DNA of 64,000 nucleotides, taken from Escherichia phage PA45. Shown here in pieces: positions 42,001 through 45,000 of the stretch. The DNA is taken from sequence record KP682389. One strand, written 5' to 3'. How positions within the stretch are numbered: the stretch's first letter is position 1; each line of letters starts with the position of its first letter. The position numbers are program-made.

Positions 42001-45000
42001 AAAAAGCCAGACAGCATGCTGAAAAGGCCAGGCTGGCGCAGGAGAGCGCCGGAGAGATCCTTAAGCGGGCAGAGGCTGCCACTGTCAGTGCTGAAGAGGC
42101 CAGACGTATGGCTGAGAATGCACGGGGGCCCCGGGGGCCTCAGGGAGAAACTGGTCCGAAGGGGGATGTCGGTCCTAAAGGCGAAACAGGTCCAGTGGGC
42201 CCTCAAGGGCCCGCAGGGCCGAAAGGTGAGCGTGGTGACGTTGGTGCTCAGGGGGCTGTAGGGCCTGCTGGTCCGCGTGGTGAGAAGGGCGAACAGGGGG
42301 AGCGAGGACCGCAGGGAATACCAGGCCTGAAGGGGGATACCGGAGAGCGGGGGCCTAAAGGGGACCAGGGGGATATGGGGCCAAAAGGCGAGAAAGGTGA
42401 TCCGGGAGGTCCTGCAGGCCCGCAAGGTCCTAAAGGCGAACGAGGAGAAGCCGGACCACAGGGACCGATGGGAGCACGAGGTGAGCGTGGGGAGACTGGC
42501 CCCCGAGGTGAACCTGGTCCTGCAGGTCCGAGAGGCGAACGAGGAGAGACCGGACCTCAGGGACCTCGTGGAGAGCCAGGTCCGGCAGGCAGCGCTGCAA
42601 ATGTGGCTGATGCAACGACGGCACAGAAGGGAATTGTGCAGTTAAGCAGCGCAACGGACAGTGATGATGAAACGAAGGCTGCCACCCCGAAAGCGGTGAA
42701 AGCGGCAATGGATGTGGCAAATGAAGCGAAAACAAAGGCAGAAGAGGCTGCAGCAGGAGGTGGTGTTCCCGGTCCGAAAGGAGATAAAGGGGACACGGGG
42801 CCAGCAGGTCCGGCTGGGCCGAAGGGTGATAAGGGAGAGCGCGGTGACACCGGCCCTGTCGGGGCAACCGGCGAACGGGGACCGGCAGGTGATGCTGGTC
42901 CGGCAGGCCCGCAGGGGCCGAAAGGTGACAGGGGAGAGCGGGGAGAGACCGGTCTGACGGGAAATGCAGGTCCACAGGGTCCAAAGGGAGATACCGGTGC
43001 GGCAGGCCCGGCAGGCCCACAGGGACCGAAAGGAGAAACAGGTGCGGCAGGCCCGGTGGGGGCGACCGGACCTCAGGGGCCGAAGGGCGACCCGGGGGAG
43101 ACGCAAATACGGTTCCGTCTGGGGCCGGGAAACATTATTGAGACAAACAGCCATGGCTGGTTCCCGGATACAGATGGCGCACTCATCACCGGACTGACCT
43201 TTCTTGACCCCAAAGATGCCACACGGGTTCAGGGTTTTTTTCAGCATTTGCAGGTCAGGTTTGGTGACGGGCCGTGGCAGGATGTCAAGGGGCTGGATGA
43301 AGTGGGCAGTGATACAGGCAGAACAGGAGAATGACATGAATATTTTGAGAAAGCTTATGCAGAGTCTGTGCGGTTGCGGAAAGCATGATGACTGTGAAAA
43401 CGGGCAGTCGCTTACAGCACAACTGCGACTGGGACCGGCAGACATTCTGGAGTCAGATGAGAATGGCATTATTCCGGAGCAGGACAGGGTAATCACACAG
43501 GTGGTGATACTGGATGCAGATAAAAAGCAGATACAGTGTGTGGTAAGACCGCTGCAAATCCTGCGTGCTGACGGGACGTGGGAAAATATTGGCGGGATGA
43601 AATAGCCGACAGCTTCACAAAAACCGGAGCCCGGCTCCGGTTTTTGTTGTCATGTATAGGGGGGGGTTATTAGAGAGTGAAGTAATAAACATGTTAATAC
43701 GATGGAGTGAAGGATGCCGTGTAATTCTGGTTCAAGAGTTTTTTATGCCGGAAAATCGCAGGATTATTCTGGATAGTAAAGAATCCTGGTTAATAATCTG
43801 TGATAGTCAGTTGGGCCATTTAATGCGCAGTATGTATCAGGGACGCCGTTTTATTCAGCTGAATCTGGAAAAATTGAAAGGGGTACATGATGTCGCCTTG
43901 CCAGTGAAATGGGAATTCACACGAAGACAGTGAATAGCTTTCTGTATACGGGAATGGCGAAAAATGGACTGTATGGTGTGAGTGTGAAACATCTTGCGTG
44001 TGCGGAGTGATGCTTCTCGTTGCTACAGCGGCAATGATAATGCAGTGAAAAAAGGGGAGCAATATGCTCCCCCAAACCGAAAGAAAATTGCAATAATCAA
44101 TGAAGTTATTTAGTCATCATCAGAATGTCATGCAAGGCATTTTGTTTCAGTGATGCCGATCGCGATTTTAGCGAATTCCATCATAAATCCCCTGATTTTT
44201 AAGCCTGAAGCAGTCAAAGGAATTTCTATGCCCTATATCGATATCACCACGATGCGTGGGATGATGCCGCGCGTTGTGACATCCATGCTGCCCGAGCATT
44301 CCGCTGTACTGGCGGAGGACTGCCATTTCCGGTTTGGTGTTATTACACCAGAACGTCAGATATCCGGGGTTGAGAAAACATTCACAATTAAGCCAAAAAC
44401 AATTTTTCATTACCGTGACGATTTCTGGTTTGCATGGCCGGATGTGGTGGATGTGATCCGCAGTCCGATCGCTCAGGACCCCCACGGGCGTATTTACTAC
44501 ACTGACGGGCGTTTTCCTAAAGTGACGGATGCGACTATTGCCACAAAAGGGGACGGGAATCACCCGACATCATCGTATCGTCTGGGGATCCCCGCGCCGA
44601 CGACAGCTCCTGTCTGTACTGTTCAGCAGGGCGGTGATGTTTCTGACGATAACCCGAATGATGATGAAACCCGGTTTTATACGGAAACCTTTGTCTCAGA
44701 TTATGGTGAAGAAGGTCCGCCAGGTCCGGCGTCTCTGGAGGTAACACTCCGTACTCCGGGAACTGCGGTACAACTGACGCTGGCTCCGGTGCCATTGCAG
44801 AATGCCAGTATTAAACGTCGCCGGATTTATCGCTCTGCATCAGGTGGAGGGGAGGCGGATTTTTTACTTGTGGCTGAACTGGATGCATCCGTGCTCAGTT
44901 ACACGGACAAAATACCGGCGAAAAACCTTGGGCCTTCCCTGGCGACATGGGATTACCTGCCGCCGCCAGAGAATATGACAGGCCTTTGCCTGATGGCTAA

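Follow-up and report, generated by a model that had tools for sequence, protein, structure and literature searches.

A probable remnant of an adhesin, regulator and small-protein cassette behind the tail-fibre genes of a 933W/Sp5-type Shiga-toxin phage

The DNA analysed here, 64,000 nucleotides (nt) of Escherichia phage PA45 (sequence record KP682389; the whole stretch is hereafter the window), comes from a 933W/Sp5-type short-tailed Shiga-toxin (Stx2) phage. Between its tail-fibre module and an essential tail-formation gene lies a segment, 43649-44200, with one small open reading frame (ORF), named L0123 in phage 933W, followed by DNA that looks non-coding. We consider it very probable that this segment is the eroded remnant of a cargo cassette that moved horizontally, and that L0123 and the 'non-coding' DNA are the wreck of two genes, one for a regulator and one for a small membrane protein. 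The segment is dead cargo, a case of ordinary prophage gene decay, closed by a conserved leftward terminator that lost its gene. Of wider use is the recognition of an unannotated regulator family within a cassette of adhesin, regulator and small protein.

The 1.2 kb around the segment is 100% identical to 933W, VT2-Sakai, Min27 and dozens more Stx phages, and the stx-linked landmarks of the window are three tRNAs, STnc100 and AsxR. In 933W the gene order at the locus is L0121 (a collagen-repeat tail fibre), L0122, L0123 and L0124, equivalent to ECs1228, 1229, 1230 and 1232 of strain Sakai and to ORF67 to ORF70 of its prophage Sp5. G+C content across 43600-44200 is 41-44%, against 50-55% in the flanks. 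Features of the segment are listed below; loci in other genomes are cited by our handles (L006, L007 and so on), with positions where needed, and aa stands for amino acids.

43652-43933, plus strand: L0123 (ECs1230, ORF69), a 93-codon chimeric leftover ORF (ORF scan; 933W, Sakai and RefSeq annotation).
43707-43718, plus strand: junction of deletion 1 (alignment with L009 and L010, which retain ATGAAGCTCATTCTTGCGACGCGTAAT..., encoding MKLILATRN...).
43710-43891, plus strand: relic of an N-terminal receiver-like domain, family residues ~23-80, in the L0123 frame (BLASTP, tblastn, DNA alignments).
43892-44010, plus strand: relic of a C-terminal LuxR-type helix-turn-helix, family residues 119-157 and stop, in another frame than L0123 (tblastn, DNA alignment to L052).
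44007-44048, plus strand: relic of a gene for a 41-43 aa tail-anchored membrane protein (phrog_9340), final 13 codons and stop (tblastn, alignments).
44048-44073, minus strand: predicted intrinsic terminator for leftward transcription, the 3' boundary of the cassette (stem-loop from 44073 down to 44054, U6 from 44053 down to 44048).
44074-44200, minus strand: conserved non-coding 3' segment of the cassette (shared by five lineages; in L052 and L057 it lies away from L0124).

The 93-codon ORF was placed correctly by the original prediction, made from the sequence of the window, and public records open it at three different start codons: 43652 (933W, 93 aa), 43691 (Sakai ECs1230/ORF69, 80 aa) and 43745 (RefSeq/PGAP, 62 aa). 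The profile search of its protein that had been proposed gave no match in Pfam or NCBIfam and two in PHROGs, both partial. The 80-aa profile phrog_2014 matches L0123 residues 14-93 only; the 156-aa profile phrog_6585, which corresponds to the 156-aa protein of the UCPROB-002 prophage, is matched in its N-terminal half only (E = 1.9e-29). By BLASTP, L0123 residues 24-76 align to that 156-aa protein (L007:1893-2360) at 64% identity over 53 aa.

Searching the window by tblastn with the intact proteins finds the remainder of both genes. The receiver-like part lies in frame +3; the missing C-terminus of the regulator (38 residues) lies at 43891-44004 in frame +2, with 87% aa identity (CRLASEMGIHTKTVNSFLYTGMAKNGLYGVSVKHLACA), in DNA corresponding to a 33-aa ORF at 43909-44010; and the last 14 residues of the small ORF lie in the third frame at 44004-44048 (GVMLLVATAAMIMQ and stop, against GVLALVATAAVVMQ and stop). 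The 'about 200 bp' of DNA after L0123, previously taken to be non-coding, is not featureless; by tblastn and by DNA alignment it is recognisable gene debris. A 39-aa ORF at 43994-44113 (phrog_11089), annotated in some phage records, reads through the hairpin in a frame made by deletion, and we treated it as a gene-caller artefact.

Three deletions separate this debris from intact relatives. At deletion 1, as comparison with L009 and L010 (both lambdoid prophages) shows, the window lacks 174 nt between GAA(G/A)GGATGCC repeats, and with them the ribosome-binding region and the first ~22 regulator codons (MKLILATRNYYLEYGLRLLLK), so that the L0123 'start' (MLIRWSEG) is read from former leader DNA. 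Deletion 2, at 43891/43892, covers ~112 nt; residues ~79-118 are gone, the frame is shifted, and the DNA-binding domain is no longer in frame with the N-terminal domain. Deletion 3, at ~44012-44015, covers ~140 nt, from just past the regulator stop codon to about codon 29 of the small ORF. The helix-turn-helix relic is ~96% identical in DNA to the intact L052 copy (hand count) and the N-terminal relic only ~70%, which shows the relic itself to be mosaic. Some 933W-type copies carry a premature TGA in the out-of-frame tail of L0123 (CACATGAAG in L024 and L041).

The course of events would then be as follows. A fibre module (L0121, L0122 and their terminator) would have taken the place of the cassette's adhesin gene. 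Deletion 1 would have joined the old leader to the regulator at about codon 23, and L0123 now opens at an ATG that happened to lie in the leader; deletion 2 would have left the DNA-binding domain as out-of-frame debris; and deletion 3 would have removed the DNA between the regulator stop codon and the surviving end of the small gene. The leftward gene is gone here, and at most a short orphan transcript from weak promoters would end at the hairpin. As read from these sequences, L0123 is most likely a non-functional leftover ORF. A crude consensus scan, a weak negative, found no plus-strand sigma-70-like site between 43649 and 43745, the single one found sitting inside L0123 at 43770-43797; lacking a local promoter, L0123 would be transcribed only within the Q-antiterminated late transcript. 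Nor did scanning find a plus-strand terminator after L0123, the hairpin at 44054-44073 being followed by CAAACCG.

Published genetics agree that the ORF is dispensable. Mondal et al. made in-frame, marker-free deletions in Sp5 and found ORF67, ORF70 and ORF71 to be essential, and ORF68 and ORF69 not (PMC5155283). The viability of the ORF69 deletion rules out a structural role for the ORF, so the alternative that it is a conserved structural component falls away (PMC5155283). The same deletion gave several-fold more plaques and lysogens, for which the authors suggested a regulatory role (PMC5155283). Its span, from just after ATGTTAATA to CGAAGACAGTGA, is such that the receiver-like remnant was removed; the relic of the helix-turn-helix stayed in place, as did the hairpin and the DNA past it.

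Full-length regulator homologues were looked for at the same slot and are present. A protein search returned 44 Escherichia coli 'hypothetical proteins' of 156-175 aa without a Pfam domain; at curated thresholds none has a Pfam or NCBIfam hit, the GerE/LuxR helix-turn-helix profile included. The intact gene is under purifying selection, with a ratio of non-synonymous to synonymous substitution rates (dN/dS) of 0.13-0.31 at dS 0.5-1.7. An AlphaFold2 model of the intact protein, built from 23 sequences, has a predicted local distance difference test score (pLDDT) of 90.7 and a predicted template modelling score (pTM) of 0.86. Its best 43 Foldseek matches in the PDB are all two-domain response regulators, receiver plus DNA-binding domain, nearly all of them full-length and of NarL/FixJ type, headed by FixJ (E = 4e-4, probability 0.99) and then RcsB, StyR, EvgA, VpsT, DesR, VraR and DosR; template modelling scores (TM-scores) reach only 0.3-0.47, since the two domains are oriented differently. 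Among PDB sequences, a profile search returned only LuxR/GerE helix-turn-helix proteins (E = 0.09-0.19), aligned on the motif LTMSEMVVMF...EMGI.TKTV. As read from the alignment, D52 at the end of beta-3 is invariant and the loop after beta-1 carries an invariant T7/N9 in place of the acidic pair, a replacement that makes phosphorylation doubtful. We call the intact relative of L0123 a predicted small regulator with a receiver-like domain and a LuxR-type helix-turn-helix, an assignment that the modelled fold supports and curated sequence models do not. PsrA and PsrB were considered as relatives of L0123 and dropped, the Psr regulators being AraC-type according to a review.

The regulator gene is the middle member of a cassette. 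From left to right the intact cassette comprises a YadA/Eib-like trimeric autotransporter adhesin, the 156-175 aa regulator, the 41-43 aa tail-anchored membrane protein and the hairpin. The adhesin (YadA anchor match 1.5e-18, EibD 3e-8) regularly precedes the regulator gene, and the small ORF regularly follows it; the latter encodes a tail-anchored membrane peptide, (K/R)RY(T/I)xGAMCFMLFVWLGGVV... (phrog_9340), and is under purifying selection where intact, with a ratio of non-synonymous to synonymous differences per site (pN/pS) of 0.1-0.4.

Intact cassette copies: L007:689-2545; L008:648-2512; L052:2887-4652; L057:1009-3012; L054:2869-4653.

Short-tailed Stx-type phages carry this trio internally, and other prophages have it at their very end, beside host genes (hya in L052, dinI-prfC in L054, ykgJ-yodB-zinT in L057). 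The trio is mobile cargo.

Comparison with related phages, which had been proposed as a check, shows what fills the slot. It holds the L0123 debris, or a gp38-like adhesin with cor, or the YadA-like adhesin trio. In the O104:H4 Stx2 prophage the genes between the fibre gene and the L0124 homologue are a gp38-like adhesin and the exclusion lipoprotein gene cor. In the UCPROB-002 and STEC2018-553 prophages they are a YadA-anchor protein, a 156-157 aa hypothetical protein and a 41-43 aa ORF. The hairpin and ~100 nt after it are common to the window and to the O104:H4, UCPROB-002 and STEC2018-553 types. In divergent relatives the start of L0124 is nearly identical and the DNA upstream of ~44140 is different.

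Other loci bear further traces of the cassette. At L006:1565-2350 (E. coli O104:H4 2009EL-2050) the Gp38_N/phrog_1121 adhesin and cor are followed by a small ORF frameshifted by a 14-nt deletion and by the same hairpin. Two lambdoid long-tailed prophages of enterohaemorrhagic E. coli and O55:H7 (L009:2501-3323 and L010:2824-3331) have, after the fibre terminator, a regulator with its N-terminus intact and its 3' end truncated, adjoined by fibre C-terminal fragments and by the type III secretion effector genes NleG and EspJ; these truncated copies indicate that the family decays repeatedly and independently at loci of effector exchange. A scan of 185,579 species representatives gave one match only, the 601-bp contig L058 (NZ_JPLE01000137.1, labelled Xanthomonas pisi DSM 18956). 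This contig carries a 933W-type relic including the hairpin region and, being the sole match among so many representatives, is most likely E. coli or Stx-phage contamination of the Xanthomonas assembly.

The right-hand end of the cassette is marked by the hairpin, GGGGAGCA (44054-44061), loop ATA, TGCTCCCC (44065-44072), which a minus-strand terminator scan reads as nine pairs (six of them G-C), a 3-nt loop and TTTTTT. That it has a U6 run on the minus strand only, as originally described, is confirmed, no U-rich tract following it on the plus strand; the loop, given as ATAT, is in fact ATA. Its folding free energy (dG) is -15 to -16 kcal/mol, none of 200 shuffles being as stable, with z-scores of -3.9 on the plus strand and -2.8 on the minus strand (dG -16, 57-nt context). 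Terminator-like patterns are not enriched across 42-46 kb (4 found, 3.7 ± 1.8 expected), so the case for this hairpin rests on stability and conservation and not on the scan.

Conservation is seen in five lineages, which keep the stem in surrounding DNA that is 55-85% identical. The seven outer pairs, GGGGAGC/GCTCCCC, are kept in all lineages except L069/L070, where a compensatory variant has a U-A in place of the seventh pair C-G (GGGGAGT...ACTCCCC). A second compensatory variant, in L057, has U-A instead of A-U as the eighth pair (GGGGAGCT...AGCTCCCC); the eighth pair is lost in L052, and L054 retains the left arm only, at a recombination junction. The A-run before the hairpin, which gives the minus-strand U-run, is 5-8 nt long in nearly all lineages. 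In L069/L070 the hairpin stands ~10 nt from the stop codon of leftward dinI (hand count on the sequence), and in L057 a leftward ykgJ-like pseudogene has its stop codon ~95 nt away. These positions just 3' of leftward genes identify the homologous hairpins as a putative convergent terminator for leftward transcription at the right-hand end of the cassette. As a one-way stop in vivo it would shield the fibre genes from antisense RNA. No leftward gene is left at the hairpin in the window; the leftward transcript that the hairpin was first said to imply holds for this family of elements in relatives and is unproven for this genome.

Beyond the hairpin, the stretch 44074-44200 is present in L052 and L057, at prophage ends, where there is no L0124; it is thus part of the cassette and not of L0124. 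Between lineages its proportion of differing sites (p-distance) is 0.19-0.33, compared with 0.4-0.7 for synonymous sites (pS) in the adjacent genes, a comparison confounded by mosaicism: between STEC2018 and L057, for example, the small ORF has pS 0.09 and the non-coding stretch p 0.25. Promoter-like elements, aligned by eye, keep their position across lineages (CTGnnA, 16-17 nt, TGnnATT(C/A)T). Promoter-like sites of the window are CTGAAA-17-(TG)aCATTCT, seen by eye and below the scan threshold, and ATGACA-17-TAACTT, the best candidates having 7-8 of 12 matches. A good extended -10, TGcTATGAT, is found in the O104:H4 and UCPROB types; its equivalent in the window is ATGACA. L052 has a second hairpin upstream, which in the sequence looks like the terminator of the neighbouring leftward gene and would make the stretch an independent unit, arranged as in a small gene. 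Comparing the 933W with the O104:H4 type gives no conserved small ORF on the plus strand downstream of the hairpin. The minus strand offers one further candidate:

44128-44184, minus strand: mini-ORF MMEFAKIAIGITETKCLA, 18 aa, preceded by GGGGA (read from sequence).

In the O104:H4 and UCPROB types this mini-ORF is 24 aa long, and L052 conserves the first 12 codons; the ORF could encode a micro-protein or be due to chance.

If a leftward RNA exists within 44074-44200, it would most plausibly run from 44115 (or 44096) down to 44048, about 50-68 nt. The ~100-nt minus-strand RNA first proposed for 44075-44150 found no backing in the data covered: it has no Rfam match, only weak promoter candidates precede it, and it is absent from the 64 Hfq-bound orphan small RNAs (sRNAs) of Sakai, among which are six other Sp5 loci. 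In that ultraviolet-crosslinking set nothing lies near ~1,287,430-1,287,650 (PMC4104026 Table S2), the eight Sp5 sites being 1255628, 1266899, 1268411, 1268494, 1292386, 1301433, 1308356 and 1308663 (PMC4104026). The small-gene tables from ribosome profiling (RIBOseq) and RNA sequencing (RNAseq) of Sakai have no entry at 12872xx-12877xx, and the part of the EDL933 transcription-start tables that was covered has no match for local sequence strings. In Rfam no family reaches its gathering score and nothing meaningful appears at E <= 10 or E <= 1 (window, L052, L006 and L058); the best sub-threshold scores, RsaOG at 27.5 of 50 bits and DapZ at 22.5 of 56 bits, are driven by the terminator. RNAalifold finds no structural covariation beyond the terminator, and one compensatory pair is too little for a covariance model.

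Known prophage sRNAs were set aside. EcOnc53 is close by coordinate but maps 3' of lom (1292386); HnrS (EcOnc10-12) is located in Sp9, Sp10 and Sp12, not in Sp5; the Pas sRNAs lie by the esterase/holin region; and 24B_1 lies in the lom-vb_24B_43 region.

Several points weigh against regarding the segment as dead cargo. Deleting ORF69 alters phage yield, so that the DNA or its product has some effect, and a truncated receiver-like fragment could act alone; the effect could also be one in cis on read-through into ORF70/71, and not one of protein function. L0123 is open in hundreds of phage copies, which says little since these are at least 99% identical. Covariation in the hairpin is thin, there being about six independent haplotypes, of which two lineages have each changed a single pair type; RNAalifold gives a covariation term of +0.61 and predicts only the terminator and a 6-bp stem. 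Finally, the ~125 nt beyond the hairpin, which diverge less than the synonymous sites of their neighbours and occur in three unrelated contexts, hint at a function that decay leaves unexplained.

This last point leads to the alternative that survives best, which is compatible with our explanation of the ORF: that a genuine leftward RNA of ~50-70 nt, from 44115 or 44096 down to 44048, is still made. It would resemble AsxR and AgvB and could act on host targets or antisense to the L0124 leader in the late transcript. The canonical terminator with U6 speaks for it, as do a CU-rich single-stranded stretch before that terminator, the conservation of the stretch in five lineages and three genomic contexts, the second hairpin of L052 and the constant position of the promoter-like elements. 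Against these stand the degraded -10 of the window, the absence of such an RNA from the Hfq-bound set, from the RIBOseq/RNAseq supplement and from Rfam, the want of covariation beyond the terminator, and the capacity of mosaic recombination to mimic conservation. On balance we think it unlikely that a discrete leftward RNA is made in this phage, and somewhat less so for phages of the O104:H4 type; that it acts in the way outlined is likewise doubtful. A slightly broader form, in which the ~125 nt from the hairpin to the L0124 ribosome-binding site would be a conserved leftward gene moving with the cassette, for an RNA of ~50-70 nt or a micro-protein of 18-24 aa (MMEFAKIAIGIT...), is distinctly unlikely. 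If it were true, short-tailed Stx phages would carry a leftward RNA antisense to the ORF70 leader, which could hold down the leaky expression of late genes in lysogens or adjust the assembly of tails. The higher-yield ORF69 deletion leaves this stretch intact.

We hold it improbable that the segment is a working moron, with L0123 a functional small protein that is expressed independently and, from the minus strand (44075-44150), a regulatory RNA of ~100 nt ending at the hairpin. Its low G+C, the variability of the slot, the terminator just upstream of the ORF and the minus-strand-only terminator of the hairpin would all suit such an element, and so would the gain in plaques and lysogens on deletion, with the regulatory role suggested for it (PMC5155283). 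L0123, however, is a thrice-deleted fragment with its start taken from a former leader and its tail out of frame; no promoter-like site precedes it and no plus-strand terminator follows; PGAP, Sakai and 933W disagree on its start codon, a premature-stop variant occurs naturally, and the protein is without a Pfam or NCBIfam match. The description 'moron-like insert' thus survives in part: this is a variable and AT-rich cargo slot, in which an intact gene, an own promoter and a same-strand terminator were not found.

An equally small probability attaches to a role for the hairpin on the plus strand, in the late polycistronic mRNA, whether in protecting or processing a 3' end or as a translational spacer before L0124, the minus-strand U-run being incidental. 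The hairpin does lie inside the late operon, between dispensable and essential genes; on that strand it folds just as stably (-15 kcal/mol, z -3.9); and its A-run consists in part of a TAA or TGA stop codon and the A residues that follow. But in L069 and L057 the hairpin is followed by convergent leftward genes and by no plus-strand gene, the A-run stays at 5-8 nt in nearly all lineages though the stop codon needs only 1-2 bases of it, and the plus strand has no U-tract. That intact cassettes hold a type I toxin-antitoxin-like pair of small membrane-protein gene and convergent antisense RNA, of which the window would have the dead remnant, is very improbable, for although a small, hydrophobic, conserved ORF does end exactly at a hairpin that terminates a convergent transcript, a geometry recalling Fst/RNAII and TxpA/RatA, the intact ORF is not similar to known type I toxin families (Pfam, PHROGs annotation), the leftward unit would overlap only its 3' untranslated part, the ORF always accompanies the regulator gene, the stop codon of one often overlapping the start codon of the other (L054), and so looks like an operon partner, and the copy in the window is truncated to 13 codons.

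The eroded cassette is bounded by the following neighbours.

43336-43605, plus strand: L0122 (ECs1229, ORF68), an 89-aa free-standing tail-fibre C-terminus ORF (Pfam Phage_fiber_C, E = 5e-36; phrog_576, tail fibre; 933W, Sakai and RefSeq annotation).
43619-43648, either strand: strong symmetric intrinsic terminator closing the fibre module (stem-loop 43624-43640, A5 before, T-run after).
44228-45853, plus strand: L0124 (ECs1232, ORF70), essential tail-formation gene (PGAP start; phrog_511; PMC5155283).

L0122 is the final gene of the fibre module, and the fibre gene before it already ends in a Phage_fiber_C domain. Sp5 does not need L0122, for which Mondal et al. proposed a role as a reservoir for exchange of fibre tips (PMC5155283). 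The terminator behind it, originally predicted at 43624-43648, is real and strong: stem CCGGAGC (43624-43630), loop CCG, stem GCTCCGG (43634-43640), then TTTTTGTT to 43648, with a dG of -24.8 kcal/mol on both strands, z-scores of -5.0 and -4.5, and 0 of 200 shuffles as stable. Its symmetry (A5 before, T5 after) makes it look bidirectional; it escaped the consensus scan, since this absorbed the A and T runs into the stem. It accompanies Phage_fiber_C in many lambdoid prophages (query positions 1-56/64 at 94-98% identity).

For L0124 the true start is likely the ATG at 44228, which has an AAGGA Shine-Dalgarno sequence; an older start, GTG 44150 (567-aa form), is without a ribosome-binding site. 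L0124 aligns only to positions 319-859 of the 862-position profile phrog_511 ('internal virion protein'), from which some relatives would have ~320 additional N-terminal residues. A 131-aa ORF antisense to it (44168-44563, minus strand), annotated in some phage records (ORF-11c, Stx2 phage I), looks like a gene-caller artefact.

Elsewhere in the window three identical ALIL pseudoknot matches, of 121.5 bits each, lie at 8814-8930, 26521-26637 (minus strand) and 28725-28841; ALIL being a frameshift signal of the IS3 family, they point to three copies of one insertion sequence (IS) element. The IS complement appears to differ from that of Sakai Sp5, the estimated window-to-Sakai offset being unequal between the stx2 and tail regions. 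Further RNAs at Rfam gathering score are STnc100 (EcOnc27 region), convergent with AsxR downstream of stx2 (region 23582-23841, AsxR itself 23789-23841), and isrK with the C4 antisense RNA and its targets, the sok antitoxin (hokW-sokW) and the lambda cIII thermoregulator (jointly 18478-18676, 62042-62216 and 7898-7956).

Decay of a cassette accounts for a dispensable ORF69/L0123, for the different start codons that annotators give it and for some 300 bp that look non-coding; for the phage itself this has little weight. More generally, 'hypothetical' L0123-like ORFs after tail-fibre genes in prophages of enterohaemorrhagic E. coli become readable as fragments of one regulator family, and recognising that family improves pseudogene annotation in hundreds of genomes of Shiga-toxin-producing E. 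coli. The intact cassette is a candidate module of lysogenic conversion in E. coli, whose regulator could control the adhesin or host genes.

Among known systems, the morons of lambdoid phages, of which lambda lom and bor are examples, share with the segment that they are AT-rich extra DNA, in a slot that varies between collinear relatives, in the late region by the tail-fibre genes, and dispensable. A moron is autonomous, its gene being intact and having a promoter and a terminator of its own, whereas the segment in the window is a deletion remnant in which neither a promoter nor a same-strand terminator was found. The term, for 'more DNA', is from Juhala et al. 2000, as cited in PMC4104026. 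AsxR and AgvB (EcOnc02 and EcOnc01), short Hfq-dependent sRNAs that are convergent and lie at moron sites in lambdoid prophages, Stx prophages among them (PMC4104026), have in common with the present locus a leftward U-tailed terminator beside cargo DNA in a Stx phage. Their class is 51-60 nt long and the RNA predicted here would be 50-70 nt; the site here is in the tail region, not downstream of PR', has no sequence or Rfam similarity to them and was not recovered by Hfq crosslinking.

The regulator compares with NarL/FixJ regulators (RcsB, EvgA, FixJ, VpsT) in its alpha/beta receiver-like domain, its four-helix LuxR-type helix-turn-helix and the Asp that ends beta-3. These are ~200-215 aa long, against 156-175 aa for the intact relatives of L0123, and by comparison with them the copy in the window has lost its start, its domain linker and the reading frame of its helix-turn-helix. 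Among regulators of this type GadE is a small, non-phosphorylated relative.

The remaining comparisons are with cargo of the same slot. The first gene of the cassette resembles the Eib and YadA trimeric autotransporters in its YadA-type anchor, in an EibD-like stalk segment and in being prophage-borne, as Eib genes are; in the window this gene is wholly absent, and the collagen-repeat fibre L0121 with L0122 stands in that position. The gene cor, intact and annotated in the O104:H4 Stx2 phage and unrelated in sequence to L0123, is found downstream of fibre genes in phi80, N15 and T1-like phages; in the O104:H4 phage it sits in the slot of L0123, directly ahead of the small-ORF remnant and the hairpin, and is cargo serving the lysogen.

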